Source: a virus
Taxonomy: Duplodnaviria; Heunggongvirae; Uroviricota; Caudoviricetes; Demerecviridae
DNA: 64,000 nucleotides
Reading direction: 5' to 3' (one strand)
IMG/VR virus record: IMGVR_UViG_3300016480_000208
Shown: in pieces, positions 4,351-63,101 of the stretch
How positions within the stretch are numbered: position 1 is the first letter of the stretch
Layout: each line of letters begins with the position of its first letter
The notes under the pieces: generated by a model
The model's input: only the letters and a program-made list of their open reading frames with translations
Told to the model about the DNA's origin: nothing
Database searches by the model: none
Program-made: the position numbers and the translations under genes

Positions 4351-4363
4351 ATATTATTCCTTA

Positions 4364-14309: not shown

Positions 14310-14346
14310 CTTATACTCCAAAAGCGGGCACAAGGCCCGCTTAATG

Positions 14347-26087: not shown

Positions 26088-26089
26088 TT

Positions 26090-35302: not shown

Positions 35303-35335
35303 TAAAATCCCCCAACTGACGCTGGGGGATTTTTG
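35303..35335. terminator. Bidirectional-looking terminator hairpin (aaaatccccca...tgggggatttt).
   Basis: Perfect 11-bp inverted repeat flanked by A/T runs on both sides. Confidence 0.6.
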
Positions 35336-35337
35336 TA

Positions 35338-36135: not shown

Positions 36136-36229
36136 ACGATGTATCTCCGAGGCAAAGGTGGATTAGAAGTTAGTTTTCTCTCTCACCTATATAGTATAGC
36201 AAAAATGAAGGTATGCTGCAACTATTATT

Positions 36230-40587: not shown

Positions 40588-40589
40588 TC

Positions 40590-41435: not shown

Positions 41436-41507
41436 ATTACCTCACTTTCCAATATTATACACCTAAAAAGACCAGCGATCAAGATTTATAACAAAAAAGG
41501 AGATGAT

Positions 41508-42867: not shown

Positions 42868-42886
42868 CTAAGCTCCTTGAGTAATA

Positions 42887-42920
42887 AAACAAAACAAAAA
42901 AGGAGGCACTTAGGCCTCCT
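42887..42920 (-). terminator. Rho-independent terminator after gene 42947..43722.
   Basis: aggaggc actta gcctcct plus a T-run (minus strand). Confidence 0.7.
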
Positions 42921-42946: not shown

Positions 42947-43722
42947 TATTACTCAGCAGCTTCTTTAGCCTTCTTGGCGTCAGCAGCAGCCTTTTTAGCT
43001 GCTCCATCATAGTCAACAGCGCTCAGGCCACGACGGGTCAACATGGACTTGACAGAACGCTCGCCCTTGCCGGTTGCTTCGACCAGCTGTGCAACGGTCA
43101 TTTCAGCAACGTCCAGACCTTCGAACTAATCGGCAGAGGCCTTACGTGCGCTGGCTTCTTGCTTCGGAATAGCAGCGATGCGGCCTTCGCGATGCAGGGA
43201 CAGAGCCTTACCACGAATCTGCGGCAGGGTACGACCCAGGGCAGCAGCAACTGCGTCGATAGAAGCGCCTTCATTGGCCATCTCTACGAACACTGCTTCT
43301 TCTTCTTCGGTATAAGTACGAACTACTTCCTTCTTCGGGGTAGCCTTAACCAGAGAGGTTAGTTCCTCAGACAGAACCTTACCTTGTACGGTACGAGCAT
43401 TAACTTCGAAGGACAGTTGACCAGCCAGTTCAGCATAGGTAAACACACCAGGATTTGCGTTCAGAACGCTATGCAGTTCAGCAGTCTGCTCTGGAGACCA
43501 AGCGGTCTTTTGGGCTGACAGAGACTCTACAGTATAACCAGCCTTACGCAGCTTAGCTGCTACAGAGCGAGAAGTAGTGTCCAGCTTTTCGGCCAGGTCA
43601 ACAACAACTTCTTTGCTTACGCTTGCCATACCGTCAACAGTGCTGAACAGGGTATTGGTCATTTCTTCGTTCCACTTCTTAGCCATTTGTATTTCTCTCC
43701 ACAAGCTCTTTAATAGAGCCAA
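42947..43722 (-). CDS. Hypothetical Ala/Lys-rich protein; the annotated ORF end at 43126 is a TAG and the frame continues to TAA at 42947.
   Basis: 'cta' at 43126-28 followed by 59 more sense codons (...KKAAADAKKAKEAAE) and then a hairpin terminator. Confidence 0.45.
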
Positions 43723-44458
43723 TAGTTATTCCTAGTCCTACAGCTTTCTTATAGGAGCTGGATGTTGTTTTCGATTCATCTTCGCATACGAGGAAGTTAG
43801 TTGCCTTAGTTACTGTGTCTTTTACAGTGTAACCTAAAGAGGTTAAATAGGTTTTCGCTTCGTCGCGGTTTTTAAAGTCATTCAAAGAACCAGTAATTAC
43901 TATGACTAAGCCGTTAGTAAGAGGTGTTACATTGGTTGGGGCTTTAGTACTAGGAACTACTCGGTCTTCTAGGTCAAACACCCAAGGGTTTTCAATAGAG
44001 AACTCTTGAAGTAAACCGGTCAACCTAGGGGTTACTACGTCCTTCATTGTGAAGGCTTGTTCCAAAGAACTGGCTTGTGCTGCTAAAGTTTTTGAAGCAG
44101 TAGCACCAAAGCCAGTAATGGCTAAGCCTTCTAGGAACTTGTCCATTGGAATCTTGGTCGTCTTGTCTACCAACTCTTTGTGTAGCTTATTAGCCATGAG
44201 GTCTGAAAAACCCGCATTTATAAAGTCTTCGACAGTTAGACCAAGAAATTCAGGTATCGTTAATACCGAAATTTTTTCCAATGTTGCTGGGCCAAATCCT
44301 TTTATTGATAGGGCTTTGCAAAACTTTTCTAGTCGCTTGCCGGTCTGGGCAGCACAACCAGATTTATTCGGGCATTTCAGCGTAACCGCAATTGGTGACA
44401 CTACCCGTTCCAACAGTGTTCCACAGCTTGGACACTGTGTTGGTGGAATAATCTTCAT
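43679..44458 (-). CDS. ligB: NAD-dependent DNA ligase, C-terminal part (Zn finger, HhH, BRCT); ligB-like.
   Basis: CPSCGTLLER zinc finger and BRCT-like C-terminus. Confidence 0.6.
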   Translation of the reverse strand: MKIIPPTQCPSCGTLLERVVSPIAVTLKCPNKSGCAAQTGKRLEKFCKALSIKGFGPATLEKISVLTIPEFLGLTVEDFINAGFSDLMANKLHKELVDKTTKIPMDKFLEGLAITGFGATASKTLAAQASSLEQAFTMKDVVTPRLTGLLQEFSIENPWVFDLEDRVVPSTKAPTNVTPLTNGLVIVITGSLNDFKNRDEAKTYLTSLGYTVKDTVTKATNFLVCEDESKTTSSSYKKAVGLGITIGSIKELVERNTNG

Positions 44459-44636
44459 TGAAGCTCCTTCACACTTTGTACATACAGTATATCAAGTTTT
44501 GGGGAAGTGAGCAATAACTATTTCATATTAAGGAGAACCCAATCCTCTAGGGCGGTGCTCTCCAAAGCAGATAAACAGTATAGCCCTAAAGAACATCCAC
44601 GTCAACCGCAGTTTAAAATGCTAACGGCAGTATTGG

Positions 44637-45602
44637 TTAATCCGCTCTCCCAACAATAGTTGGTATAATGTCCCCCGCCCGGATAACCGCCACCTTACAC
44701 CCAATTTCCAGACCCAAGGTCTCGATATACGTGATGTTGTTCAAAGTAGCTCGGCTAATTGAGGTTCCCTTAATATCTACTGGTTCCAAAATGGCCACTG
44801 GCGTGACTCTGCCAGAGGAGCCTACTTGCCATACTACATCCAGTAGGGTTGTTTCTACCGGAGGTTCGTCCTCTTTTACAGCATAAGCTCCCCGCGGGAA
44901 TTTGGACGTGTAGCCTAGCTCTGCAAACACAGTGTTATCGTCCACTCGGTAAACGATACCATCCTGTGGCGCAGTATCAACATATGGGTGATGAAGTGCT
45001 ACATCAAATCCTTGGGAGTCTAGGATTTGCATATCAGCGCTGTAGCTGTTTGTCATTGCTGGACTTAGTCCGTAGGCAATGAAAACCACGCCATATTCGT
45101 CAAATACCTTACGGGCTTCGTTAAGGTCTTTTTCCGTAACTAGCTTACCAGAAACAATATTTCTGGAGTTAGCCGAGGCTCTAGTGGCCACCACTTCGCC
45201 AGTTACTTGTACTAGGCCTTTTACACCAAAAAAGGTGTGGGGGATTTGAAGCAGCTTGATTTTCTCGGTTACGTCTTGACCCTTCTCTCCATCACCGCGA
45301 GTAGTGGCACGCACCAACCGTCCATCAAGATAAACCAGTTCAACAGCGTTGCCGTCGTACTTCGGAGATTCCACCATAGACTTGCCTGCACAGGAGGTGG
45401 GAATCTTATCTCCACGTTTCGGATACACTTTTTGCAGAGAGTACATTGGGTATGCAAGAGGGATGTCTCCAGTAGGCCCAATACTTTTTTCTGCATTGTA
45501 GTACATAACCAAAGCATCATACTGCTCGTCGGACAATTCCGGAGTGCCTTTAGCATATAGTTCTTGGTGATGCTTAAGTAGCTTTTCGATTTCTAAATTC
45601 AT
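44637..45602 (-). CDS. ligA: NAD-dependent DNA ligase, N-terminal adenylation part; ligA-like.
   Basis: KYDG adenylation motif and NAD-ligase Ia/adenylation-domain similarity. It ends with a genuine TAA, followed by a 178-nt gap with a promoter-like block. Confidence 0.65.
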   Translation of the reverse strand: MNLEIEKLLKHHQELYAKGTPELSDEQYDALVMYYNAEKSIGPTGDIPLAYPMYSLQKVYPKRGDKIPTSCAGKSMVESPKYDGNAVELVYLDGRLVRATTRGDGEKGQDVTEKIKLLQIPHTFFGVKGLVQVTGEVVATRASANSRNIVSGKLVTEKDLNEARKVFDEYGVVFIAYGLSPAMTNSYSADMQILDSQGFDVALHHPYVDTAPQDGIVYRVDDNTVFAELGYTSKFPRGAYAVKEDEPPVETTLLDVVWQVGSSGRVTPVAILEPVDIKGTSISRATLNNITYIETLGLEIGCKVAVIRAGDIIPTIVGRAD

Positions 45603-46168
45603 AAAGTAGCTTCAACTCCTCATTAGATAGGATGTTGGCAAAAGCTGCCAATAACCCATCTATGGTCTCGTCTGTATAAGGTAAGGTAATGCCATCTTTA
45701 GTGGGGAAGTATTCCTCATCCCAAGTTGACCAGAACCACCTTCGGATACTGAGGTATAGTTTTCCATTGAACTCAGATACTACCATTCTTATGGTATCTT
45801 GTGTATCCTTGTATTGGCAGATATCAATGGAAAAACATTCAGTAGAATCGGGGCCAAGTTCTGGCCCCGCCTAGGGAAGAGACATTAGAACGCTGAATTG
45901 AGCGGCTGGATGCTATTCACGAAACGTGGTTGCACAGCAAAAATACGCTCATTAGTGCGGTCATAGATAACCAGATGGGGTTTACCGCCCAGAGCTTCTG
46001 CCAGCTGAGTACGGTGTCTATCAGTGATTTGGGGTTCCCACTTACCAGGAGTTACAGTAGCTTGAATGAATTGGCGCTTACCACCAACGTACATTTCAAG
46101 GAAAAATTCATCCAGCTCTACGGCTTTAGCTTTCAGTACGGAAAATTGCATGTAGTCTCTCCTAGTTA

Positions 46169-48229: not shown

Positions 48230-51157
48230 TTATAACTCGAGCATTTCCGAGTAATCTACAGGAGATTCTTCCTTAAGTGCAGAAGGAAGCGGTAGACTAT
48301 TAAATGAGCAGTACTTCTCTACGTTAAGTAGGGCGTTTGCAGGTTCCCATACCCAATGTTTAGCATCCAAAGGAATACCTAACATGCTGAACAGTAGGGT
48401 AGGAATTTTGTTGTTATAGTGTACACCAGCCCTAAACAGCTTTGGCAGGTTTACAAGACACAAGTCAATAAACTTGGCCTTCTTCCAGCCAGCCTCTAAT
48501 TGGGCATCCATGATTTGACATAATTCGTCCCATAGCCCTGGAATCATCATGAATCGGTATGCCTTTTCAGCCTTCTTCAAGGTGTTATCCTCTAGGAAGT
48601 CAATAATCATATCTACAGTGATGTCTTCCACCCCTGAGAAGTGTTGGACAGCTTTGTAGATCATTTGAGCGTTATTAATCCTTCGTGTATTTGGGATATT
48701 TTTACTCATATAGATTTTGGTGGCGTATAAATTCAAGTGCTCTTCTGAGTACATTGCCAATGCTTTGTACTCCAGCAAGTTCTCCTCACACGGAGGGAGA
48801 ATAGTAACCTTGCTAGTTTTCTTGAGCATGTTGTAGCGGACGTAGAACTGGTACTTATTATGCTCACGCATCTTCCTTAAAAAGAAGATGGTTTGCAAAT
48901 CACCAACCATACCCTTATCAAAAGACGACAAGCACTTAGCGGGAGTAGACACGCCACCGTTGGCATCACCAGAAGTCCAGTAATGGACGTAAATCGGGTG
49001 ACGCTCTCTGCAGATAGCCTGAATACGAATTGCTGGACTGTTTAAGCCAGATGATGTAATACAGTACACATGGGTAAAGTACTTCTGGAAGTCAACACCA
49101 GAGGTCATACTTGGGCTTGTAATACAGATATCCACACATAGCTCTTTTAGGGCTTTGGTGGGTACAGCAGCATCCATGATCATCCGCACGTCTTCATCAT
49201 CCCTACTCTCAGCATGAATCTCCACAATAGTTGGGACCCTAACACCATTAGCAATACAGTGTTGCTGGATACCGTAAGAAAGTTCGTCAATCTGTTTAGG
49301 GCCGTAGTCCGTTACTACTAAGATACGCATTGGTAGACCCGAGCTAGCGTTTGTTAACATATGGCCAACAATATCAGGCTCAGTCTTGTGCTCATACACT
49401 TTAGCGTCTAGGTGAGTAGGAACCTCCGACTGGTAGGTTATAGTGGGTTTTGTATGCCCCACCAAGGCTGAGTAGGCTTCCACAGTCTCGCTAGAGGTGT
49501 CCCCGTCTGCCAAGATCACGTAATCACACTGAATCATCAACAGATACAGCGCGTTAAGGATACGGTCTCGGCGCTCAGTGTCAATGATAGCACTGTCAAG
49601 TAGTTCTTGGATGGTACTGTCGGACTCGTCAATAAACAAGGTTTTGGTGCCAGGAATACCAGTAAATCTCTCCGCAACTTTATGCAAGCTGTGGATAGTG
49701 GTAGCGATACCATTCTTGTTTATTTCAAAGCCTAGCTTGGTGTATACATCCAAATCCATTGCAGAAGCGATTGATTCTACCAGAGTAACACGGTTGGTGA
49801 CAGCTAGAATAGAGCCCAGCTTGCCACGCTTCTGTAGTTCGCGAACAGAGTAGGTTTTGCCCATGCCCAGCGATGCTTTCAGAAAACTGAGCTTACCACG
49901 TTCAGGGAACGTGTCAGGTAGCACAAGCTTGCCCATAGGAGAAGGCTCACAATCGTGAATTTGGTGCTTCCACTTATTCTCCTTAGGAAAGGAGACACTA
50001 CGAGCAACGTCGGCAATAGACCTAGCCATAGCAAAGCGGAAACCGTTATGTAGGTAATCTTTGACCTTTTTCGTACTGCCATGACGCTTAGAATAGCTCC
50101 GTAGAATTGGTGTAAGAATATTTCGCTCAAAGTCTTTGATATCCAGACCTTCTTGCAATGCGTCAAAATAAAGGGTGTGTACAATTTTGATGTACATGTT
50201 GTCACTTACTTTACCTGTCATGATATCATTACACTTTCTCTGCAAGTTTGCAGGCAGCTGCGCTACAGCTTTATCAACCTCTGGATTAGCCAAAACAGGA
50301 ATACCGTCTAGTTTAGCCATGATTTCCAGGTGGTGCTTATTCAGCTCCTCGTACTCCGTTGCCTCAATAGCCGATTCCAGAGCTTTTGGGATAGTAGCAC
50401 TACAGCCAAAAGTATAGTACAGTCTATCTGTACTATGGAAGGGGTCAGCTAGCCCCTCAAGGGTTGGTGGGGCCGTAATCAGAATACGCGCTGGAGAGTA
50501 GGTAGTATTGTCGAGGAATCCTTGCAGTTTTTGGTTAATTTGGTCGATCAAAAAACGAATCTGACCACCAGTAAGTTCATGCTCATTCACAAAGTAGAAG
50601 TGCGCACGAATACCGGAACTGATACCTGCCGAAGAGGATGCCAGAACAATGTGACCCATAGTCTCAGGGAAAAATTCTGGGAACTCTTGATGCAGTAGAC
50701 CTACGATGTATTTGCCAACCTCTGGCAAATCAATTGGGTTGGGCGCAGACATATCAACCCAAGAGTCAATGTCAAATGCTATTAGTTTAAAGGGGGCATT
50801 GTGACTATCGAATGCTACCTTAGTACGTGGAACAAGTGTATCTTGCCCCACCTTCTTTTTACCCACCACCATTAACAGGTTTGGGTTATTTTGAGATTTG
50901 CGTAGAAATTTTACAGCACTCTTGATACTGTCAGGATTTGCTTCCTGTACTACCTCGTAGTAGAATTTCTTCCTTAGATCGCCTGATTCTGCTTTTAGCA
51001 GAAACGGCACAGGCATACTATCTTCCAGCTTGAAGGTAGACGTTATGCTTTTTGTAAAGCTAGGGGTGTGAGTCAAAGGTACATACTCTTCCCTCATGCT
51101 ATTATCTGAGGTTCGGATGTACCTACGCACCAATCTTGGAGCTAGGATAGAGAACAT
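48230..51157 (-). CDS. Large P-loop NTPase (Walker A LGMGKTY, Walker B FIDESD); putative replication helicase or primase-helicase.
   Basis: 975-aa ORF with no in-frame TAG. Confidence 0.55.
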   Translation of the reverse strand: MFSILAPRLVRRYIRTSDNSMREEYVPLTHTPSFTKSITSTFKLEDSMPVPFLLKAESGDLRKKFYYEVVQEANPDSIKSAVKFLRKSQNNPNLLMVVGKKKVGQDTLVPRTKVAFDSHNAPFKLIAFDIDSWVDMSAPNPIDLPEVGKYIVGLLHQEFPEFFPETMGHIVLASSSAGISSGIRAHFYFVNEHELTGGQIRFLIDQINQKLQGFLDNTTYSPARILITAPPTLEGLADPFHSTDRLYYTFGCSATIPKALESAIEATEYEELNKHHLEIMAKLDGIPVLANPEVDKAVAQLPANLQRKCNDIMTGKVSDNMYIKIVHTLYFDALQEGLDIKDFERNILTPILRSYSKRHGSTKKVKDYLHNGFRFAMARSIADVARSVSFPKENKWKHQIHDCEPSPMGKLVLPDTFPERGKLSFLKASLGMGKTYSVRELQKRGKLGSILAVTNRVTLVESIASAMDLDVYTKLGFEINKNGIATTIHSLHKVAERFTGIPGTKTLFIDESDSTIQELLDSAIIDTERRDRILNALYLLMIQCDYVILADGDTSSETVEAYSALVGHTKPTITYQSEVPTHLDAKVYEHKTEPDIVGHMLTNASSGLPMRILVVTDYGPKQIDELSYGIQQHCIANGVRVPTIVEIHAESRDDEDVRMIMDAAVPTKALKELCVDICITSPSMTSGVDFQKYFTHVYCITSSGLNSPAIRIQAICRERHPIYVHYWTSGDANGGVSTPAKCLSSFDKGMVGDLQTIFFLRKMREHNKYQFYVRYNMLKKTSKVTILPPCEENLLEYKALAMYSEEHLNLYATKIYMSKNIPNTRRINNAQMIYKAVQHFSGVEDITVDMIIDFLEDNTLKKAEKAYRFMMIPGLWDELCQIMDAQLEAGWKKAKFIDLCLVNLPKLFRAGVHYNNKIPTLLFSMLGIPLDAKHWVWEPANALLNVEKYCSFNSLPLPSALKEESPVDYSEMLEL

Positions 51158-52586
51158 TAATTGACAACCTCTTAATTATAACTTAGGCTCACATAAAATC
51201 CGTCCAAAGTACGTATTTCAGTGGCACTTTTTTAAGGGTGTGAAAAAGCCTAGCCCTTCGAGCGTCGATATGGACGTGGACTAGGCAGTTTCAGAAATAA
51301 ACCCCAATATACAATACTCAGCAGGAGCTCTAAAGAGCTTTTGTACTAAAGACCAAACCCTTCTTTCGAAGGTAAACAAAGACTATACTAAAACCTATTC
51401 GACCGTACACTGGTGTGGTTAAGTCTTCCAGCATTACTAGGTGTTCCCCAACACCTAGTAACACTTTCTCTCTATATAATACCAGATTACTTGATAGAGT
51501 CCCACCTCACACAATACATCTGAACCACTCTTATCACGCCGTAACTTTATTGTTTGGAACAATGGGTTCCAGGAGGCTATATGGTGCTAGCGGTTCTCAC
51601 TAGCTGCCACCTCCCACTCAAGTTATGTAACGGAAGCGCTTTGGCATAGGTCAGTTAGCATACTGCCTATTATTACCTGTAATTTAATACAAGAGACCAA
51701 CTATTGTCGAATACTTTTCAGTATTTGTTACCACCCTACTACAAGGAAGTAACAAATACTGCTTCGGGGGAAGCAGTACTCGGGTTTACTCAGACTCTCC
51801 AGTGATCCTGTGGCGTCCACTGGCATCTATTCAGTTTTCCATCTGTTACGTTTTCACTTCTGCGACCACATCCATAGACACACGTAAAACATGTCCAGCC
51901 TTGCCAGCTTTTGGGATGTACCATTTTGCTTTGTTTTCGGTCTTTAGTAGGGAAATTGTCGCCAACCTACTGAGTATGTATATTATACTGCTTTAACCGT
52001 AAGCAGTACCCAATCTGTTTCAAGCAACCCCTTTCGAGGTGGGCTTCTCCCGCTAAAGAGATTCCCGTCTAAGGAGGAAAACCGCGCTGGCTTCCTCGAA
52101 TTCCCTAAAGTATGTGAGCTTCTGGCCTTTGAGCGACCATTGGCGTTACGTCGGAGCTGGGTGTGATCCCACAACTGAATCTACCTCCATAGACCAGTCT
52201 CACAGCTTTACCTCTACTACTACAAAGATTCTCCACCTGTCTTTTCACAGGCTTTCACCTGCGGCAAGGCTGTCAGAGAATAGGAGGCTGCTTCATAATC
52301 TCGGTACCAAATAGGCCGCTAAACCTAAAAGGATACTGACCGGCAGCAGAGGACTCGTAACCCGCATCCATTACTGGATATTCCTCACCAACGCTTTCAG
52401 GAGGTAGACAATGTCACGTACTAACATTGCCTAGTACTTACGGCGCTGACCACGAACGTGGCTAGCTAGGGAAACCCCTAGTAATACCGACTTTTCGGGA
52501 AAGCCTTGTTCACAGACCTGAGAGGGTTTATTTCTCAGTTCATGCATATAGTATATCAAGTTCTAGCGTAGAAATCAACAGATATT

Positions 52587-53294
52587 TTAAAATGAATTTA
52601 AGTACTGTATAAGTTCGTATAGTTGTTGATCGGTTAATTTGAAAAATTCAGTACCCCCATTGTTAACTGTGGGATTGAACTCGTTATACGCCTAGTACTT
52701 TTTATGCAGCTATTTTTCTAGGTTCCTGGGACTATCAACAGTTATGTGGTGTACATACTGTAAGCTCCCACCAATATTTGCTATCCTATTCTTTATATTA
52801 TTGGTAATACCTATTTTTATAAGGCCTGTATTTTCACACCTAAAAACGTAAAGAATGTTTTGATTTTGCACGGAACACTTTGGACACCCATGTCCTTTTA
52901 AGTGGTGGTTGGGTGTCTGGGAGAATACACCATGCTCTGGACATATGATTAATACCTCAGTACGTCTGTTTACATATACTACAGCAGAATACTGGTAAGT
53001 ATTACCGTGAACCTATCTGAAATCCTGTATACATTGTTTGGTAGTTTTAAGTACATTACCCTAACATTTTGGACACCCAGTACCTTTTAAATGATCATGT
53101 GGTGTCGGGTAGAAATCACCATGAACTCTACAGGTTACGACTACACGGTCTCTAGATTTAACATACTGCGTCTTAGTGTAATCGTAGGTATCACCGTGCT
53201 TTTCCTTGAACTTATTAATATACCACAGATTCTTCACCTACTGGGGCTATTTACTTGATAGCTTTCCAGTTTTTGTTAAATACTGTTCAAACAT
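52587..53294 (-). CDS. T5orf172-domain protein with two GCPKC zinc-ribbon repeats (GIY-YIG-related), 6 in-frame TAG codons.
   Basis: Manual translation MFEQYLTKTGK...HLKGTGCPKC*...HLKGHGCPKC...LIKIGITNNIKNR...; RBS caaggagaaaaagcATG. Confidence 0.45.
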
Positions 53295-53427
53295 GCTTTT
53301 TCTCCTTGATTGCTTTATTATATAATACATTCGGTAGTTTGTCAACCCTCAAAATATTTTACCCCGCGCCTCCAGGGTCATTTCGGAATACGTCAACGGG
53401 TTACGTGTAAACATGTTAATCTAAGTC

Positions 53428-55511: not shown

Positions 55512-55836
55512 TGTTGCTATAGAAACAGCCAATCGGATATTTTGAGGATGGTATGATTACCATCCTATTATTTGCGGGAGAAGGTAAGCCCCCCAGGTCT
55601 TATGCCCCTTTATCTAGGGAGGAAGTCTAGAGACTGCTTGACTTCCCTAAAACTACGTCATTGCATTTGTACAACGTAACAGAGACAAACATAGAGGAGG
55701 TGATAGCCTTGCTTCGTTTTATAAAATCTCTTTACAACACACCCATTTTTTGTTATCATGATTATGAACTATCAGAGGGCTCTAGATTGACGTTGGATGC
55801 CCTAGCCAATAAGTTAATTATGACAGGAGCAATAAA

Positions 55837-56316
55837 ATGAAATCAATTGTACTTCTTTTAGGACTAATCTCAGCTTCAGCTCTTGCTAGCCCAGTAGGTT
55901 TAGTTTATTACCCACAACAGCAAGGTGTACAAGCAATCTATGACAACTTCTACGTCGGGTATGCTGGCAAGGGCCGTGATGACACCACAGTAATCGTAAA
56001 AGAAAACTATGGCGTCACACAAGACCAAACCTATATCTCTACTGAACGTGAGTGGTTTGACTACAATGTTCAAGTAGGTATGGTTGGGTATACAGATTAT
56101 AAGGTGTACCCATTCGCAGGTCTTACCTACAGCAATGACCGTAGTAATGAGGTAATCACCATTGACTCCCAGCACTACGCAACCTATGACCATAGTGACC
56201 ACACTGTTGGGTTTGAAGCAGGTTTGCTTTACGAGTTCTACCCACACGCATTGGCGGGTTTGAAATTCTCCACCCAGTATGAGACGGTGCATTTCGGACT
56301 TGGGGTTAAGTTTTAA
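55837..56316 (+). CDS. Secreted 8-strand beta-barrel outer-membrane-protein-like protein (Lom / Ail / OmpX-like).
   Basis: Signal peptide MKSIVLLLGLISASALA, alternating aromatic beta-strands and a C-terminal ...GVKF. A strong hairpin terminator follows. Confidence 0.5.
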   Translation: MKSIVLLLGLISASALASPVGLVYYPQQQGVQAIYDNFYVGYAGKGRDDTTVIVKENYGVTQDQTYISTEREWFDYNVQVGMVGYTDYKVYPFAGLTYSNDRSNEVITIDSQHYATYDHSDHTVGFEAGLLYEFYPHALAGLKFSTQYETVHFGLGVKF

Positions 56317-56319
56317 TCA

Positions 56320-56348
56320 AGGGAGCCTCAGGGCTCCCTTTGTTTTTG
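56320..56348 (+). terminator. Rho-independent terminator after the OMP-like gene.
   Basis: agggagcc tcag ggctccct followed by tttgttttt. Confidence 0.8.
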
Positions 56349-56358
56349 GAGAGAATAT

Positions 56359-58527
56359 ATGCCTATTTATGTTGGCAACACTGGGGCCTAGAAAATATTA
56401 GGTCTAACAAAAACCTCCCAGGATTAGTGGAACGTAAAGCCAGATACTATATTCCACTCCTCCCTGCCGTATGTAGAAGTAATCGAGCATTATATGCCTG
56501 TTGCGTATAAACACTAGGCTGCACCTTACGACTATCTAGTAAAAGATTATAACCCAGACTACTGGGGGACAGTAACAGTCTACGACTGGTTTAATTACTA
56601 CAACTACGCACCAATAAATGGTAATAAGTATCACAACATTCACTACTATGAGTAGGTATTAACTGATTAGGTGAAATCCTTCTTAAGATACACCAACAAT
56701 TAGTACATACTAATATACCACTTGAGCAATGGCGCCCAAGTAATGATGCCTTAGCATAATTCAGACATAAAGACCACGCACAAAGGGGATTTGCAACATC
56801 TGGACTAGACCGAAGGCAACATATAGACACCAAACTAGGGTTATAGAGCTAGAATGGATCAACTCAAGGCTATTGATAGCCCTTGGGACTTAACGGGGTA
56901 TCAGGACGTATACTGGTTCCAGTACGCTTTTGTGCAGCCTTCCGCAAATGGTGTAGTAACAACACCTAATGGAATAGTGAGTACCCTTGATATTACTGTT
57001 ACTGGTATTACTATTCTTCAGTTAGTGGGGTTAAACCTTGTATAGGCAACCCCAGGAGCAAACCCGCTATCTACCTAGCCCTTGAACCCTTAGCAGCAAG
57101 GGGCTGTTCTTATTTCTAGGGATTCCTTGAATATATAGGGAGTAGAATATAAAAACAAAAAATTCCTACAGGTGCTAACTAACCCGATTACCACAACAGG
57201 CAGTTAGGCGGTAAACGTATCTACTTAGAACTTATAGGTTACAAATCTGTACGCCTCTTCTCCCAGCTTCCAATGGGGGACTAGACTAGACTATCTAGCG
57301 AAATATCGTGACGGGGGCTTCATGAACGTAGGTATAACCTAGGGTTCTTCACAGTACACCTTAATAAATTATCCTCTGGGGCAGGAGTGGTACTCTAATG
57401 TCCCTGCTGTAGGTGCTTGGGGCGTCCTGCCAGGCAATAACATGACAACATATAGTGGGGCTGTACCAGGGTACTGGCCTTATAGTTTTTATGGTGGTGC
57501 GTCAGTTGGGGTTAATTCTTGGAAAGGTAGTATTAGGAAACCCAAAGAGCTTATTTAGCAGTCTTGGTAGCACACCTTTACTAGACTTAGCTAGACCGAT
57601 ACCTGGACTCTAGGTCAGTACTTTAACCAAGGGCTAGCAAATCGCCTTGGTTCTGAGGTTCAATACTTCTAGGGCGTGTAGATTACCTCTCTAAGTAAGT
57701 AGTAGGGTATTGCGTTCGATAGTTCACACCCTAGCATCAATTAGGGTGCCCAATATAAGATGTTCTCGCCAGATTCGCAAATGGTTGCAAGAATTGGTAA
57801 AACATACGCAGCAGCTATCCCACAAGATACCTTTAGCGGGTCACCCTACTATTCTGGGACACGGAATTTCCCATAGTACGAAGATGATATTCTTGTATCA
57901 ATAATTGATTTGGGATAGGAAGAGCAGTAGACCAACAACTTCTTCCTAACATCCTACATTCAAGACCAGGATTTAATTAACCTGTCCTATGCTAATACCT
58001 TGAGGTTTATTGTATCTGGGGGCGTTATCTCATACCAAGAGAATAACTTTAACCCAAGCTACAACATACCTAAGTAGTGCTTATTCTATAGATAGCCGTA
58101 TGATGGGGTTGGTGGGCAATGGTACAAGTCTGTGCAAGCCAATAATGGTTCCCCTGTATGGTTTGGTTATCCAGATTGGTACTACAGCAACTACGACTTA
58201 CCTACAGATATGATAGGATTCCCTTTCCAATCAAACCATATACGTAATAGGTAGGTTTCTGTGGTAAGCTTGCCAGTAGGTGCACAATATATCTTGAAAG
58301 AAGAGCTAAACCCACAGTCAAGCTACGCGTGGAACGGGCCAGACCAAGTTAGGGGGGTACGAAGCTCCATCTAGTATCTTCGTAGAATCTCTTAGTCCAG
58401 AATTGAGGTGCGCCTCAACGTACATAAGACACAGTAGCACAGTGTTTTCTCTAATGGTGGGTATCTTGGTTTCGGTACTTTTGGGTCTAGCGTAGTTCAA
58501 AACTTCTAGATATGCCCTATACTGTAA
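56359..58527 (+). CDS. Long TAG-rich gene: 723 codons with 36 in-frame TAG and no TAA or TGA until the terminal TAA. The Y/N/G/W/T-rich protein may be structural or receptor-binding.
   Basis: Codon-by-codon check against coordinates. The listed ORF 56854..57045 is an in-frame fragment. ATG at 56359. Confidence 0.6.
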
Positions 58528-58814: not shown

Positions 58815-59081
58815 ATGGAACAAGATATTGAGCAACTGAGTGTACCGGTACCTGTAGGCAAGAACAGTGTTGTTGTCATTTCTCCCAACTTTGAGCGTTT
58901 AGAGGACGAGGGCATTATTGGCCTTGACTGTACTTGCTACCTAAACGTGCTGGGAAATGACGAGCACGATGAAGATTCCGAACAGGGAACTGAGTCCCTT
59001 TTGGAAGAAGCCTCTGCCTTCTTCGGAAAAGTACTCGAAGATTACGCAGCATACGTTATTGCTACACAGAAACCTGAGTAA
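58815..59081 (+). CDS. Hypothetical acidic protein.
   Basis: 88-aa ORF. Confidence 0.4.
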   Translation: MEQDIEQLSVPVPVGKNSVVVISPNFERLEDEGIIGLDCTCYLNVLGNDEHDEDSEQGTESLLEEASAFFGKVLEDYAAYVIATQKPE

Positions 59082-59086
59082 GTGAT

Positions 59087-59518
59087 ATGACGCGAGTAAA
59101 CACTATAGACCCTAAGCTATTGCTGGATCAACACCTAACAAGGGAGTACCAAGAAATAACTCGCGTCAGCTCCCTAGCGAGAGCATACACAGCAAAAGAC
59201 AAGGTACCAAAAGAATATGTTTTAGGTACAGGTCATGTTCTGTTCTTTTACGATAAGGGTGAATTTTTACGCAAAAGATGTGAACTCTTATACGCAGAGT
59301 GCAAACGTAGAGGTTTTAACGTAGAGTACAAAGAGTATAGGCCACACCCAGAAGGTCTTAATAATGACTGGAATCCTAGTCTGACAGACCATCTTGTAAA
59401 CCTCTCGCGGTTGCAAGAGAAACTAGATATGAAACCAGACTGGTATAAGTATCTTAGAGACGACCTAAATGACCCATATCACTATCAAAATCTACCTTGC
59501 CTAGTAAATCTGCAATAA
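59087..59518 (+). CDS. denV: Pyrimidine-dimer DNA glycosylase (T4 endonuclease V, DenV family).
   Basis: MTRVNTIDPKLLLDQHLTREYQEITRV...GTGHVLFFYDKGEFLRKR...WYKY aligns closely to T4 endonuclease V. Confidence 0.8.
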   Translation: MTRVNTIDPKLLLDQHLTREYQEITRVSSLARAYTAKDKVPKEYVLGTGHVLFFYDKGEFLRKRCELLYAECKRRGFNVEYKEYRPHPEGLNNDWNPSLTDHLVNLSRLQEKLDMKPDWYKYLRDDLNDPYHYQNLPCLVNLQ

Positions 59519-59526
59519 AATAAAGA

Positions 59527-59555
59527 TTGCACAACAGCCAATTATTTGAGATAAT
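59527..59555 (+). promoter_or_regulatory. Promoter of the same family (TTGCAC-17-GATAAT). It is followed by the same 'ataataatcaYatgaaatcgRga' leader seen before the suppressor tRNA.
   Basis: Seen in sequence. Confidence 0.55.
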
Positions 59556-59942
59556 AATCACATGAAATCGGGAACGTTAAGTTGCTTATTTCATGAAGTG
59601 GCGTAACGCAGAGCGGTGCACCGACTCATACGTGTGACATAGCTTCCTTTAATTAGTGAAGCCCCACGAGGGCAGACCAAGCTCCTCAGAAAACAATCTT
59701 GGAGATTCTAGTTAAGTCCACAGCGGAGTAGACAGTAACTAATATCTGCTAGAGGGTGCCGATCTTGTGTGTTGAAGGCTACTAGGGCTACCACACAATA
59801 CTTACGCAATGCCAGCTTAATAAGCGATTAGCTGTAAGTCCCTGACACTGAAAAACTATCGGAAAACTTCTGGGTTAGATACCAGACTGGAAGTGAGTTA
59901 CATAGCCCGAGTGCTTCAGACTTCCACACTTTAAAATAAAAG

Positions 59943-59971
59943 TTGCTATTCACTCTGATTCTTGTTACAAT
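59943..59971 (+). promoter_or_regulatory. Promoter (TTGCTA-17-TACAAT).
   Basis: Seen in sequence. Confidence 0.5.
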
Positions 59972-60034
59972 ATTAGAATCAAAGAACGAAAAGAAACTTG
60001 GTTGGTGAGCAGTGAAAGCGTTGTAAAATACTTC

Positions 60035-60063
60035 TTGCCCAATACTGAAAAGTTTGTTATAAT
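60035..60063 (+). promoter_or_regulatory. Promoter (TTGCCC-17-TATAAT).
   Basis: Seen in sequence. Confidence 0.5.
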
Positions 60064-60276
60064 AATCGTACAAAATCAAAAAGGCGTTGGCTTCTCCTCG
60101 ACGGGTGCCAAAAAATTACCGCCCACTAATTAGTCGCCAAGAGTGTGACTATAGCTGGGAAGAAGCTGGAATCGTCAACCAGCACTCTGTTGGCGCAGAG
60201 TTAGTATATTGTAGGCCGGGGCCGCGCTGAAATGCAACTTAAGGCCCTAGGAGCTAACGACCTTTTTGATTTTATT

Positions 60277-60363
60277 GGTGAATATGAGCAATGTGGTTAG
60301 CTTCAGCGGTCTGTAAAACCGTGCTCTCTGGGCCTGTTGGTTCGATTCCAACATTCACCACCA
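60277..60363 (+). tRNA. tRNA-Tyr (GUA), type II long variable arm.
   Basis: Acceptor ggtgaat/attcacc+a+cca, T-arm gttgg-ttcgatt-ccaac, anticodon loop ctGTAaa. Confidence 0.6.
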
Positions 60364-60369
60364 ATTTCT

Positions 60370-60455
60370 GGAGGTTTTGAGCAGTATGGCGAGCTCAGGT
60401 GGCTGTAACCCACTAACTTCTATGTTTATAGGTTCGAATCCTATAACCTCCACCA
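60370..60455 (+). tRNA. tRNA-Tyr (GUA) second copy, type II.
   Basis: Acceptor ggaggtt/aacctcc, D-stem gagc/gctc, anticodon loop ctGTAac, T-arm atagg-ttcgaat-cctat. Confidence 0.6.
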
Positions 60456-60461
60456 ATTTCT

Positions 60462-60577
60462 GGACTTGTAGCGACAACGGTTCGATAGGTGTACCCTGTG
60501 TGCGGAGTAATCTGTAATCACTATCAGGTAAAATCCCTATGGAGCGGTGACTGGTTGGAATCCAGTAAAGTCCACCA
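60462..60577 (+). ncRNA. Oversized tRNA-like element (116 nt) with a canonical acceptor and T-arm but an unresolved core.
   Basis: 5' ggacttg pairs with 3' aaagtcc+a+cca; T-arm actgg-ttggaat-ccagt; no standard D or anticodon arms could be placed. Confidence 0.3.
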
Positions 60578-60584
60578 ATTTAAT

Positions 60585-60659
60585 ATTGGCGTGTTCTAAC
60601 GGTAAGATGCAGGTCTCCAAAACCTTGCGATGAGGGTTCGAATCCTTCCGCCTTTGCCA
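60585..60659 (+). tRNA. tRNA-Trp (CCA)-like with A1-U72, G73 and two U:U acceptor mismatches (possibly degenerate).
   Basis: Anticodon stem-loop caggt-ctCCAaa-acctt, T-arm gaggg-ttcgaat-ccttc, 3' cgcctttgcca. Confidence 0.4.
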
Positions 60660-60665
60660 GTTAAT

Positions 60666-60741
60666 AGACCACTAACTTAATGGTTAGAGTATCCGCCTCT
60701 TAAGCGGAAGGTTCTGAGTTCGAGTCTCAGGTGGTCTACCA
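60666..60741 (+). tRNA. tRNA-Lys (CUU).
   Basis: Acceptor agaccac/gtggtct, D actt/gagt, anticodon tccgc-ctCTTaa-gcgga, T-loop ttcgagt. Confidence 0.8.
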
Positions 60742-60923
60742 GTTTTGCAAGTATAATGTATGAGAAGAATGAGGTAAGCGTGGGGTAACGTTCTCAAGGG
60801 TACACGGTTAGAAAGACACTCGTAATATTAGTCGTCCAGCCCTTATGCCGTGTGAAGTCTAGCCTTTAGGGCAGACCAGATTCCTGATAAAGCCTACAGA
60901 TTATACTTGCAAATTTATTTAAT

Positions 60924-60997
60924 GCTCGGTTATTTTAACGGGAGAATACTTCCCTTACAAGGAAGAGGAGTTGGTTCGATTCCAACACTGAGTACCA
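60924..60997 (+). tRNA. tRNA-Val (UAC).
   Basis: Acceptor gctcggt/actgagt, anticodon cttcc-ctTACaa-ggaag, T-arm gttgg-ttcgatt-ccaac. Confidence 0.7.
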
Positions 60998-61003
60998 AAC
61001 AGT

Positions 61004-61079
61004 TGAGACGTTGTGTAATTGGTTAGCACATGTGACTTTGACTCACATAGTTAGGGTTCGAGCCCCTACGTCTCTGCCA
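61004..61079 (+). tRNA. tRNA-Gln (UUG).
   Basis: Anticodon tgtga-ctTTGac-tcaca, T-arm taggg-ttcgagc-cccta, 3' ...cgtctctgcca. Confidence 0.65.
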
Positions 61080-61173
61080 AACACTCTAAACCTGAATTAA
61101 CAGGGGAAGGGGGCCGTGAGTGTACTATGTAATCCTCCAGGTTATAGAGTAAATATACGGCTCTGCCAATTTT

Positions 61174-61250
61174 GGGTTAGAAGCACATAAGGTATGTGCG
61201 GTCGCCTGTTAAGCGAATGGTAGAAGGTTCGAATCCTTCCTGGCCCGCCA
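61174..61250 (+). tRNA. tRNA-Asn (GUU).
   Basis: Acceptor gggttag/ctggccc, anticodon gtcgc-ctGTTaa-gcgaa, T-arm gaagg-ttcgaat-ccttc. Confidence 0.7.
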
Positions 61251-61264
61251 AATTAAAACAAAGA

Positions 61265-61293
61265 TTGCTATCAAGCTGACAACTTGATATAAT
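61265..61293 (+). promoter_or_regulatory. Promoter of the same family (TTGCTA-17-tgaTATAAT) inside the tRNA island.
   Basis: Near-identical to the 62389 module. Confidence 0.65.
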
Positions 61294-61315
61294 ATCTTCA
61301 GAAATTAAGAATAAT

Positions 61316-61393
61316 GCGTCACTAATTCAATTGGTTTAGAATATCCGGCTTTTAACCGGAAGGTTGTAGGTTCGAGTCCTACGTGGCGTACCA
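61316..61393 (+). tRNA. tRNA-Lys (UUU).
   Basis: Acceptor gcgtcac/gtggcgt, D attc/gaat, anticodon tccgg-ctTTTaa-ccgga, T-arm gtagg-ttcgagt-cctac. Confidence 0.8.
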
Positions 61394-61400
61394 TTTTAAT

Positions 61401-61475
61401 GCTCCTATCGACTAGCGGTTAGGTCACTACCCTTTCAAGGTAGTAACATGGGTTCGAATCCCATTAGGAGTACCA
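61401..61475 (+). tRNA. tRNA-Glu (UUC).
   Basis: Acceptor gctccta/taggagt, anticodon ctacc-ctTTCaa-ggtag, T-arm atggg-ttcgaat-cccat. Confidence 0.8.
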
Positions 61476-61490
61476 TTTAAGAGAGTTAAA

Positions 61491-61814
61491 ATGTATAATA
61501 ACGGAAAAGTAGCAGAAATAACTGCAATGCTGCACTATGCAGAAGCGGGTTATGAGATATTTCTCCCACAAGGTTCATAGTCCTGTGACTTTATTGCTCT
61601 TTCCTCAGAAAGACTTATAAGGGTAGAGGTTAAGTCCACGGGTTAGGTTAACGGGGAAATAGACCTAAGAAAAAGAACCCATACTACTACCACAAAAACT
61701 CAGCATTTTAACTCTAATAAGAGTGATGAAACTTTCTTGTATAATCTACTTACAAAGTAGTTTAAGATAGTGTAGTCAAACACTTTAGAAGGTAGACGTT
61801 CTATACGCGTCTAA
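61491..61814 (+). CDS. Small PD-(D/E)XK nuclease (Hjc-like resolvase / homing-endonuclease-like) inside the tRNA island, 4 in-frame TAG codons; its 3' extent is uncertain.
   Basis: GKVAEITAMLHYAEAGYEIFLPQGS*SCDFIALSSERLIRVEVKSTG matches the Hjc-type E...D...EVK motif. RBS gagag. Confidence 0.4.
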
Positions 61815-61906
61815 TACCAGAACTTCCTTTGCTGTCCACGGACGCTATGGGTTGCTGGAGCAAGCAAGGCTCTGCCCAGCGTGAAGTCGCCTTGCAACAT
61901 TTTAAT

Positions 61907-61981
61907 GCTCTGTTAGTTTAATGGAGAGAACACTTCGCTACGGACGAAGAGGTCTGGGTTCGACTCCTAGACGGAGTACCA
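61907..61981 (+). tRNA. tRNA-Arg (ACG).
   Basis: Acceptor gctctgt/acggagt, anticodon cttcg-ctACGga-cgaag, T-arm ctggg-ttcgact-cctag. Confidence 0.8.
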
Positions 61982-62290
61982 CTTTTGCCTTGGCCGGCAA
62001 GAAGTCTAGCTAGTAGACTATAACAGCAAGCACGGTTATGGGCCGGATAGCTCATACGTCCAGCCACCCGACGTAAAATAGGGGTTCGTTATGGCAGCTT
62101 ATCGAAGTAAAGCTGGTCGGATATAGCCTAACCGTGAGAAAGGCTGGCCTGTTCCCTCTAACAAAGTCAGGTGGAAGTATCTCTTAGATGTCCAGAGCGG
62201 ATCCCGTTGGGTTGATGCGTGTGTCGGTCTAATTCATACAAGCCATCAGGATTAGCCATCCATAGAGGGGTTTTTAAAGCGTTTTCTGGC

Positions 62291-62367
62291 GTGGGCATAG
62301 GTTATGTCTGGTTAAACTCCACGTTGTGACCGTGGGAAAATGGGTTCAAATCCCATTGCTCACCCCA
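62291..62367 (+). tRNA. tRNA-His (GUG).
   Basis: Acceptor gtgggca/tgctcac + C73, anticodon ccacg-ttGTGac-cgtgg, T-arm atggg-ttcaaat-cccat. Confidence 0.7.
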
Positions 62368-62388
62368 GAGAACGTTTTAAAATAATAA

Positions 62389-62417
62389 TTGCTATCAAGG
62401 TATTAACTTGATATAAT
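62389..62417 (+). promoter_or_regulatory. Strong promoter upstream of the suppressor tRNA (TTGCTA, 17-bp spacer, extended tgaTATAAT).
   Basis: ttgcta 62389-94 and tataat 62412-17. The same module is at 61265-93 (before tRNA-Lys UUU) and 59527-55. Confidence 0.7.
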
Positions 62418-62446
62418 AATCATATGAAATCGAGAGTGGTTTTGAT

Positions 62447-62521
62447 GGGGCATTAGCTCAATGGGAGAGCGGCGGACTCTAAATTCGCTGGTTAACGGTT
62501 CGAGTCCGTTATGCTCCACCA
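62447..62521 (+). tRNA. Amber-suppressor tRNA, anticodon CUA, on a tRNA-Ala-like body (G3:U70, A73). Predicted to decode TAG as alanine.
   Basis: Full cloverleaf: acceptor ggggcat/atgctcc+A+cca with the G3:U70 wobble; D-arm tagctcaatgggagagc (E. coli tRNA-Ala-like); anticodon arm gcgga-ctCTAaa-ttcgc; variable tggtt; T-arm aacgg-ttcgagt-ccgtt. A promoter lies 30 nt upstream. Confidence 0.85.
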
Positions 62522-62533
62522 AAACTACTTTTC

Positions 62534-62609
62534 GGGGCTATAGTTTACATGGGTAAAACCGCTGCCTTGCAAGCAGCAGAATTCGGTTCAATTCCGAATA
62601 GCTCCACCA
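62534..62609 (+). tRNA. tRNA-Ala (UGC).
   Basis: Acceptor ggggcta/tagctcc (G3:U70), A73; anticodon gctgc-ctTGCaa-gcagc; T-arm ttcgg-ttcaatt-ccgaa. Confidence 0.8.
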
Positions 62610-62615
62610 AATAAT

Positions 62616-62714
62616 ACAGGTAAAGTCCAGTGGTTGCTGGTACGAATCAATAAGAAATCTATTTGGGTAGTCCAGTTAGGTTCCGCGGAGGTTCGACTCC
62701 TCATACCTGTTCCA
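62616..62714 (+). ncRNA. Oversized tRNA-like element (99 nt) with a perfect 7-bp acceptor and a T-arm but an unresolved core.
   Basis: 5' acaggta pairs with 3' tacctgt+t+cca; T-arm ggagg-ttcgact-cctc; no convincing anticodon arm found. Confidence 0.3.
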
Positions 62715-62720
62715 AATAAT

Positions 62721-62798
62721 CCGTGTGTAGGCTAGTCAGGTTAGGTCGTCTGGTTTGGGACCAGAAAGTCGAAGGTTCGAATCCTTCCACACGGACCA
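62721..62798 (+). tRNA. tRNA-Pro (UGG).
   Basis: Acceptor ccgtgtg/cacacgg, anticodon tctgg-ttTGGga-ccaga, T-arm gaagg-ttcgaat-ccttc. Confidence 0.8.
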
Positions 62799-62822
62799 AT
62801 TTTCTTAGTAAGGATCTCTGTA

Positions 62823-63022
62823 TGAGAAATAAAACTCGTATGTTTATTGTAGAGCATAAAGGTGAACAGTATATTCAGAAAACTGGAACCTTAAATTTTA
62901 TTTCTCTAAAAGATGGAAGTACGATTCCGGGGGACATAGCCGAAGAATTGGATAGACTGAATAAGTTTAAACATGATTTCGGGTCAAAAACTGGGTGGAA
63001 ATCCGTCTTTACTATAGTTTAA
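62823..63022 (+). CDS. Small hypothetical protein between tRNA-Pro and the tRNA-Met-like gene.
   Basis: ATG with RBS aagga. The longer listed ORF 62723..63022 starts inside tRNA-Pro. Confidence 0.35.
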
Positions 63023-63027
63023 TTGAC

Positions 63028-63101
63028 GCGCTTGGGAGGTAAGGCATCTCACTGGTCTCATAAGCCAGTAGAAGTGGGTTCGATTCCCACTTGCGCAACC
63101 A
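63028..63101 (+). tRNA. tRNA-Met (CAU)-like elongator with an imperfect acceptor stem.
   Basis: Anticodon ctggt-ctCATaa-gccag, T-arm gtggg-ttcgatt-cccac, 3' ttgcgcaacca; the 5' acceptor has two mismatches. Confidence 0.45.

Follow-up and report, generated by a model that had tools for sequence, protein, structure and literature searches.

In a survey of phages whose genetic code departs from that of their host, the authors report having observed only the changes of TAG to glutamine and of TGA to tryptophan (Borges et al., 10.1101/2021.08.26.457843). Table 15 of the NCBI translation tables, in which TAG is glutamine, was predicted for 49 genomes of the INPHARED collection, including two of Shenzhenvirus (MG676224 and MG676225), and sporadic cases in Demerecviridae were remarked upon (Cook et al. 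2024, PMC11210395). The present analysis concerns a 64,000-nucleotide stretch of viral DNA (IMG/VR record IMGVR_UViG_3300016480_000208, hereafter the window), in which a 723-codon gene at 56359-58527 contains 36 in-frame TAG codons. It is highly probable that the window belongs to a T5-like Aeromonas phage of the genus Shenzhenvirus which uses UAG as an alanine sense codon by means of a tRNA with the anticodon CUA, and that the gene encodes its pb5-type receptor-binding protein. Hou and Schimmel in 1988, McClain and Foss in 1988, and Normanly et al. are said to have described an Escherichia coli amber suppressor tRNA-Ala(CUA) and the G3:U70 rule for alanyl-tRNA synthetase (AlaRS), and Hayashi-Ishimaru et al. 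reportedly found in 1996 that UAG means alanine in some chlorophycean mitochondria.

The window shares several features with the gut and crAss-like phages assigned to table 15, such as a host with the standard code, in-frame TAG in many genes, a phage tRNA-CUA, a subset of genes free of TAG, TAG-rich structural and lysis genes, and genes fragmented by standard annotation. It differs from them in that TAG would mean alanine rather than glutamine and the identity set of the suppressor is that for AlaRS and not that for glutamine; moreover, it represents a cultured T5-like virus of a gammaproteobacterium, and TAG is common in its replication genes too. The holin, spanin, and endolysin genes of the window all contain TAG, which may be compared with the lysis cassettes of gut phages, where recoding is preferentially found (Borges et al.). 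The suppressor resembles the laboratory tRNA-Ala(CUA) of E. coli in G3:U70, A73, and the CUA anticodon, and alanine would be expected at UAG in both cases; however, it is natural, phage-encoded, kept in diverged phages, and faces hundreds of codons genome-wide. The codon and its new meaning are the same as in the chlorophycean mitochondria, which are organelles where the code has changed completely and no release factor competes, whereas the virus operates inside a standard-code cell.

The frame itself begins, as a run free of TAA and TGA, at 56317, and ATG 56359 is its first start. A recount gave 723 codons with 36 TAG, no TGA, and a single TAA as the last codon, exactly as the initial annotation had tallied. 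With a probability of TAA or TGA of 0.0385 per codon, taken from the base composition of the window, the chance of 722 codons without either is about 4.7e-13, and about 12 TAG codons would be expected where 36 are found. The gene aligns without gaps to its counterpart in Aeromonas phage AhSzw-1 (94.4% identity), and no frameshift, which the initial annotation had considered as a possible flaw, needs to be invoked. Among 123 nucleotide differences, 109 fall at the third codon position; 108 of the codon differences are synonymous and eight are non-synonymous (13 to 1). All 36 TAGs are kept in AhSzw-1, which has one more, the 37th, in place of a TGG of the window. Absence of homologues and random-like codon periodicity had been named as signs that the stretch is non-coding; homologues exist, and substitutions are in excess at third positions. 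The stretch is a real coding gene under purifying selection. The GenBank annotation of AhSzw-1 has a single 64-amino-acid open reading frame (ORF) across the corresponding 2.2 kb, as would be expected of a gene caller halted by TAG.

The window can be assigned, from sequence comparison, to a T5-like siphovirus of Aeromonas (Demerecviridae, Shenzhenvirus). Its nucleotide identity is 92-97% to AhSzw-1 and AhP_Mru1, and for Akh-2 and TS3 the value is about 66-78%; these four phages are T5-like members of Shenzhenvirus (Demerecviridae) of about 115 kb. The DNA polymerase of the window is 99.5% identical to that of Mru1 at the protein level, and the gene order, read together with AhSzw-1, is T5-like. 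The genome records of the relatives give Aeromonas hydrophila as host. Aeromonas uses the standard genetic code and is expected to keep release factor 1 (RF1). ORFs of at least 150 codons add up to 69.9 kb in the window when TAG is taken as sense, compared with 36.0 kb otherwise. TAG interrupts clearly recognisable essential genes (NrdA, NrdB, primase, and the DnaB-like and D10-like helicases); these, the receptor-binding gene, and the structural genes of AhSzw-1 are conserved genes under purifying selection with TAG in frame. AhSzw-1 (92% identical) stands in for the genome outside the window; its late region is annotated as scattered fragments (tape measure, portal, terminase, and tail protein), which merge into full-length genes once TAG is read as sense.

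Four independent lines of evidence indicate that TAG encodes alanine, not glutamine, in this phage. The T5-like phages phiR2-01 and My1 (30-60% identity) served as standard-code references. At the TAG columns of AhSzw-1, these homologues have alanine in 148 of 475 cases, serine in 51, and glutamine in 18, and alanine in 45 of the 93 cases in which both references agree; the corresponding values for Akh-2 are 130 of 433, 36, and 17, with alanine in 34 of 80 agreeing columns. The window genes alone give alanine in 21 of 84, serine in seven, and glutamine in two, with alanine in 2 of 13 where the references agree. Overall, alanine occupies 30-31% of TAG columns in standard-code homologues and glutamine about 4%. 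In a leave-one-codon-out control, 10 of 10 sense codons were assigned correctly and TAG was assigned to alanine by a margin of 272 log units; the partner profile of TAG (A 0.31, S 0.10) is close to that of GCA (A 0.38, S 0.11). An aside in the initial annotation that TAG might be alanine proved right on both the homologue columns and this control.

Comparison with Akh-2 covered 40 orthologue pairs in the true frame (65-85% protein identity), obtained from a greedy non-overlapping ORF set with a filter for excess third-position changes; shadow ORFs in non-coding frames, which yield many spurious TAG/TGG and TAG/CAG transitions, were removed by this filter. The partners of window TAGs in Akh-2 were TAG (55), Ala (31), Glu (12), Ser (11), Lys (11), Gln (10), and Thr (9), and the maximum-likelihood residue, with a matrix measured on the same alignments, was alanine (lnL -378), ahead of serine (-408) and glutamine (-428). 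The enrichment of alanine is not due to mutational proximity, because GCN codons lie two or three substitutions from TAG, which has no single-step synonymous neighbour among the alanine codons. Within the family of the receptor-binding gene, TAG is paired with TAG 26 times, with alanine 20 times, and with glutamine four times; for example, SLSK-TAG-TAG-GIAFD in the window is aligned with SLSKAAGLS and SLSKAAGIA, and PSIN-TAG-G with PSIDAG. If TAG is counted as alanine, the D10-like helicase, DnaB-like helicase, and primase contain 7.3-8.4% alanine and the receptor-binding protein 9.3% (TAG being 36 of its 67 alanine codons, 54%), compared with about 7% in TAG-free genes; counted as glutamine, it would raise the glutamine content of TAG-rich genes to about 8% from about 3.5%. 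A regression of amino-acid composition on TAG density was weakly informative (alanine slope -0.24 to -0.42, noisy ORF set), and comparison of the seven TAG positions of NrdA with NrdA structures in PDB was uninformative, these being variable sites.

The acceptor stem of the suppressor tRNA (Table 1) has G1-C72, G2-C71, G3:U70, G4-C69, and A73, the classical alanine identity set, and lacks U1 and G73, both of which are found in the phage's own tRNA-Gln. The copies in AhSzw-1 and Akh-2 show compensatory changes at 5-7:66-68 and in the T stem, and a third, more diverged copy, likewise with compensatory changes in the lower acceptor stem and T stem, occurs in a 121.9-kb metagenomic T5-like contig (L012); G3:U70 and A73 are kept in all three diverged copies, and the tRNA order His - CUA - Ala - Pro is identical in all three lineages. 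Since AlaRS does not inspect the anticodon, charging of tRNA-CUA with alanine by the host enzyme is expected. The charged tRNA would then compete with host RF1 at UAG, and UAG would become a 62nd sense codon in phage genes, with the meaning alanine. When C-termini were aligned with those of T5-like homologues, all genes ended within a few codons at TAA or TGA, and none at TAG (two wrong-strand ORFs admitted by the greedy ORF choice were set aside); the long ORFs of the window stop at TAA (38) or TGA (12). As judged from these alignments, TAG never acts as a terminator here and is a full sense codon. A search of IMG/VR with a degenerate suppressor-tRNA pattern gave no match, and a search for related loci in the same database returned AhSzw-1 only.

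The reading of the product as a structural or receptor-binding protein, made in the initial annotation from its composition, was largely right, and the predicted fold and profile matches lead us to conclude that it is probably the pb5-type receptor-binding protein of the phage, relocated relative to T5. With hhalign, the N-terminal 41 columns match the protein that is annotated as receptor-binding in phiR2-01 (E 5e-5, 44% identity), the two sharing the motif ..FVG..., DTIFHS..P.V; conversely, when the phiR2-01 protein is compared with all ORFs of the window, AhSzw-1, and Akh-2, its best match is this gene or the one at the corresponding position. One homologue (P0002) has a weak precomputed Pfam match to PF26860 (Phage_T5_RBP5). 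An AlphaFold model from a ten-sequence alignment, built on a database protein (P0001) with glutamine at the TAG positions, shows a pb5 fold in the predicted core; four sequences had been too few for a usable model (pLDDT 32). Outside the N-terminus, sequence identity to T5 pb5 (PDB 8b14, 8a8c) is about 12%. The product would be a tail-tip protein recognising a host surface receptor; a T5 virion has about one copy of pb5, and binding of FhuA is specific to T5 pb5.

Homologues of the protein are very rare: four were found in a search of 5.8 billion proteins, the same four again in a repeat profile search, and nine in a search of 1.84 billion representatives. Read at the DNA level, the full-length homologues from three other sources (28-33% identity) have 20, 36, and 39 in-frame TAG codons and no TAA or TGA, and the P0002 gene, carried by a 122-kb T5-like contig, occupies the same slot there, with nrdD on one side and the tRNA block on the other. 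P0001, a database cluster 93% identical to the window protein, has glutamine at all TAG positions through translation with table 15, and P0002-P0004 are likewise so translated; if TAG is alanine, these four records are wrong at 20-39 residues each. Each relative examined has a strongly diverged, TAG-rich allele with the shared N-terminal motif between nrdD and the endonuclease V gene/tRNA cluster (Table 1), and TS3 shows the same N-terminal match at this slot, which appears from these comparisons to be a hypervariable host-range cassette. Further uncultured T5-like relatives with a TAG-rich pb5-like gene were noticed, namely L012 (ENA ERZ28615351 scaffold_8, 121,920 bp), L013, and L014 (Logan SRR21883084 and SRR18474632). 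The amber-to-alanine clade would therefore be wider than the cultured Aeromonas phages, because all three share this gene and L012 also has the G3:U70 tRNA-CUA.

The use of TAG varies strongly between genes. The per-gene comparison that had been proposed with the first observation was carried out and revealed a contrast from zero to 8.1% of codons (Table 1). Usage is bimodal: genes of 270-980 codons have no TAG at all, and their neighbours write 30-60% of alanines as TAG, which suggests two expression classes within the block matching the early region of T5. Besides the TAG-free genes of Table 1, those for PRPP synthetase, RNA ligase, ThyA, and RNase H lack TAG in the window. The long ORFs of AhSzw-1 contain 637 TAG in total, including 84 in the tail fibre (1683 codons), 66 in the tape measure (1314 codons), 34 in pb3, 25 in pb4, 15 in the large terminase subunit, and six in the portal; the receptor-binding gene (5.0%) has the same TAG density as the tail fibre and tape measure. 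The major capsid and tail tube genes, the two most abundant structural genes of AhSzw-1, are nearly without TAG (2 TAG vs 57 GCN in the capsid; 3 TAG in the tail tube), and its pre-early genes dmp and A1 have none. Individual sites also change: NrdA and NrdB of AhSzw-1 have 7 and 4 TAG, as in the window, whereas NrdA of Akh-2 (35308-37557) has none and its NrdB frame (33998-35137) has one, 5' of the aligned N-terminus. The residues of Akh-2 at the window TAG sites are E, S, T, G, I, T, A in NrdA and E, K, P, A in NrdB; TAG is therefore gained and lost at substitution-tolerant positions.

The initial annotation had further proposed that synthesis of the full-length protein depends on the suppressor tRNA and that amber recoding gates late or structural genes. 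The former is supported by inference from the phage tRNA-CUA. The latter stands in part: TAG is dense in low-copy tail genes, in lysis genes, and in the homing endonuclease gene, and it is absent from pre-early genes, but it is also found in genes of replication and nucleotide metabolism (the D10-like and DnaB-like helicases, primase, and NrdA lie in the block corresponding to the early region of T5) and is near-absent from the major capsid and tail tube. TAG is not simply a marker of late genes, because it is present in replication genes and rare in high-copy structural genes. Absence from pre-early genes together with avoidance in high-copy proteins appears to fit the observed distribution better than a simple early/late switch. 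In the two-step DNA transfer of T5-type phages, the pre-early genes enter the cell before the remaining DNA, tRNA genes included. TAG might be excluded from genes translated before the tRNA gene has entered, and the receptor-binding protein, in which more than half of the alanines (36/67) are TAG, would be made at full length only once the suppressor tRNA is abundant. A regulatory or attenuating role of TAG density, that is, a translational gate, may be envisaged, which these data fit rather than prove.

Several explanations other than a dedicated alanine codon have to be considered. A pseudogene in decay, or a spacer without coding function, in which TAA and TGA are lacking by accident, might be suggested by the single short ORF annotated in AhSzw-1 and by the lack of a Pfam, PHROG, or PDB sequence match; with an open frame that chance would produce about 5e-13 of the time, a 13 to 1 ratio of synonymous to non-synonymous changes, full-length homologues at 28-33% identity (one on the metagenomic 122-kb T5-like contig), a predicted core fold in agreement with pb5, and a ribosome-binding site in place, this explanation is refuted by the present analysis and deserves practically no credence. 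Even less credible is pyrrolysine, a label that derives from ARAGORN, which calls any CUA tRNA 'tRNA-Pyl': TAG columns align with alanine, Lys-like residues account for 5-7% of them, and the suppressor has the alanine identity set and aligns with the adjoining tRNA-Ala. No pyl genes were seen among annotated or identified genes in a search that was not exhaustive. Glutamine, as in crAss-like and other gut phages, would agree with the translation of P0001, with Q at each TAG position, and with the CAG/TAG exchanges seen between close relatives, CAG and TAG being one transition apart. Glutamine, nevertheless, is found at about 4% of TAG columns, compared with 31-32% at true glutamine codons, and alanine leads it by 427 log units (lnL -2573 vs -3000); the suppressor has G1-C72, G3:U70, and A73, whereas the phage's own tRNA-Gln has U1-A72, G3-C70, and G73, and TAG as glutamine would double the glutamine content of TAG-rich genes. 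The gene caller of the INPHARED survey reportedly represents reassigned TAG solely as table 15. AhSzq-1 and AhSzw-1 were predicted there to use table 15 (Cook et al. 2024, PMC11210395, Supplementary Table S1), and no test of the amino acid is reported in that study. On this balance glutamine is very improbable.

It is also conceivable, although rather unlikely, that UAG is suppressed leakily, with termination as the main outcome, full-length receptor-binding protein as a minor product, and TAG as an attenuator or timer, possibly with mixed insertion. RF1 is expected in the host, TAG is avoided in the highest-copy proteins (2 of 59 alanine codons in the major capsid; three in the tail tube) and dense in few-copy proteins, and its share of alanine codons is either 0 or 30-60%. 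However, where a gene has 36 to 84 TAGs, read-through as high as 90% at each of them would still leave at most 2% full-length product; the tape measure and tail fibre of AhSzw-1 are essential, so that near-complete decoding is required, and TAG is the stop of no gene. The difference is one of degree and is compatible with alanine decoding by the suppressor. Against the assignment of UAG to alanine and of the gene to pb5, the following points also have to be weighed. TAG was assigned to alanine from comparative sequence statistics and tRNA identity rules, and alanine is found at 31% of TAG columns compared with 38-46% for GCN codons; therefore, TAG occurs at somewhat less conserved positions or its decoding is not perfectly uniform. 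U35 of the CUA anticodon is an identity element for glutaminyl-tRNA synthetase (GlnRS) in E. coli, and given this base some mischarging by GlnRS may occur. G is weakly enriched at the base after TAG, with p between 0.02 and 0.003 in two genomes and no significance in the window, which was not taken as context selection, and 36 UAGs would have to be read efficiently in an RF1-bearing host. Overall confidence in the structure model is low (mean pLDDT 44, pTM 0.54); the Foldseek comparison that had been suggested for the product returned pb5 (8a8c_B) as the top match, which was not significant (E 0.16). With TAG as alanine, the protein had no match in Pfam, PHROGs, or PDB sequences, the Pfam copy used giving none for the annotated pb5 of phiR2-01 either, and a five-sequence profile had chance matches only among PDB sequences. 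Finally, the gene lies away from the canonical pb5 site: in T5 it is beside the small terminase subunit, whereas here it is between nrdD and the tRNA cluster, and in AhSzw-1 dmp comes directly after the small terminase gene (105922-106452), with no pb5 gene there.

Recoding in this genus had already been flagged, as code 15, and the meaning alanine appears to be new. Papers describing these Aeromonas phages make no mention of recoding, and no report of a TAG-to-alanine code in a phage was found in the open-access literature searched. What appears to be new is the meaning of the codon, the route of decoding (a G3:U70 tRNA and an AlaRS blind to the anticodon), and the setting in a cultured proteobacterial T5-like phage. 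We are inclined, with some reserve, to regard this as the first natural amber-to-alanine code in a virus, found in a T5-like clade of cultured Aeromonas phages and metagenomic relatives that would exploit the anticodon-blind AlaRS and spell up to 60% of the alanines in selected genes with UAG; its density would be tuned by gene class, with avoidance in pre-early and high-copy proteins and dependence in low-copy tail, lysis, and homing-endonuclease genes. Alanine would represent a second and mechanistically simpler route to recoding, in which an anticodon change alone could in principle turn tRNA-Ala into a suppressor. If this is true, pipelines based on table 15 put glutamine for alanine in every TAG-containing gene of these phages; genes of AhSzw-1, Akh-2, and Mru1 are fragmented or have TAG rendered as glutamine, and deposited TAG-containing proteins would be wrong at those residues. 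The receptor-binding protein deciding host range would be among those mistranslated, in phages that are under development for aquaculture therapy. Most recoded phages are known from metagenomes only, whereas these are cultured on a tractable host, which would provide a genetically tractable model of phage code switching in a proteobacterium, in which the override of RF1 and the use of recoding as a timer or limiter of expression become directly testable.

Table 1. Coordinates of the features discussed (positions in the window unless another genome or contig is named; Ala, alanine)
Feature	Position	Strand	Remarks
pb5-like receptor-binding protein gene	56359-58527	+	722 aa; 36 in-frame TAG, 31 GCN, TAA stop
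Shine-Dalgarno-like GGAGAG	56348-56353	+	5 nt 5' of ATG 56359; read from sequence
Terminator-like G+C-rich hairpin, then T run	56319-56340	+	9-pair stem, 6 GC pairs, TGTTTTTGGA tail; consensus match only
Amber suppressor tRNA, anticodon CUA (ARAGORN label 'Pyl')	62447-62521	+	ARAGORN
tRNA-Ala(UGC)	62534-62609	+	12 nt 3' of suppressor; same acceptor identity set including G3:U70
15-tRNA gene cluster including suppressor	60277-63101	+	ARAGORN
pb5-like allele, AhP_Mru1	L016:2561-4189		542 codons; 23 TAG
pb5-like allele, AhSzq-1	L017:3219-4994		591 codons; 27 TAG
pb5-like allele, Akh-2	58883-60763 of Akh-2		626 codons; 33 TAG
D10-like helicase	36225-37706	-	16 TAG, 40% of Ala codons
DnaB-like (T5 D6) helicase	41509-42909	-	14 TAG, 36% of Ala codons
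DNA primase	40572-41441	-	6 TAG, 29% of Ala codons
NrdA	32267-34519	-	7 TAG, all at variable positions; 11-12% of Ala codons (with NrdB)
NrdB	30950-32071	-	4 TAG; 11-12% of Ala codons (with NrdA)
Holin (phrog_860)	26084-26737	-	15 TAG, 54% of Ala codons
Rz-like spanin	13923-14429	-	7 TAG
Endolysin	28369-28806	-	3 TAG
Hydrophobic protein, 190-208 aa	17798-18424	-	17 TAG, 8.1% of codons, 59% of Ala codons
HNH/T5orf172-type homing endonuclease (phrog_681, phrog_559)	52587-53348	-	6 of 9 Ala codons TAG (67%)
DNA polymerase, 812 codons	38149-40587	-	0 TAG vs 62 GCN; TAG-free class
D2-like helicase (981 aa), both ligase subunits, NAMPT	48230-51175, 43679-45611, 2734-4353	-	zero TAG

Among the other genes of Table 1, that of the hydrophobic protein exceeds all others of the window in TAG density, which is kept in AhSzw-1 (18 TAG) and Akh-2 (17 TAG). 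The product is apparently, from its sequence, a multi-pass membrane protein, and no family match was found for it. The homing endonuclease has a 57%-identical paralogue at 115058-115738 of AhSzw-1. The tRNA cluster starts with two adjacent tRNA-Tyr(GUA) genes of clearly different sequence (60277-60455, plus strand).

Directly 5' of the receptor-binding gene lies a TAG-free gene on the plus strand (55813-56316) encoding 159 amino acids, and the terminator-like hairpin sits between its stop (56314-56316) and the receptor-binding gene. The product, which starts with a signal peptide (MKSIVLLLGLISASALA) and ends in ...GLGVKF with a final Phe, is called 'YtxH domain-containing' in the annotation of AhSzw-1, whereas neither Pfam nor PHROGs gave a match; its sequence has the look of a small outer-membrane beta-barrel. 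From its position one might speculate that it is, in analogy to Llp of T5, a partner of the receptor-binding protein in receptor masking or superinfection exclusion. The window also spans the ends of the GenBank record of AhSzw-1 (2-2121 matches 112446-115085, and 2734-4353 matches 200-1846), so this record would appear to have been linearised at an arbitrary point or to have its terminal repeats collapsed.

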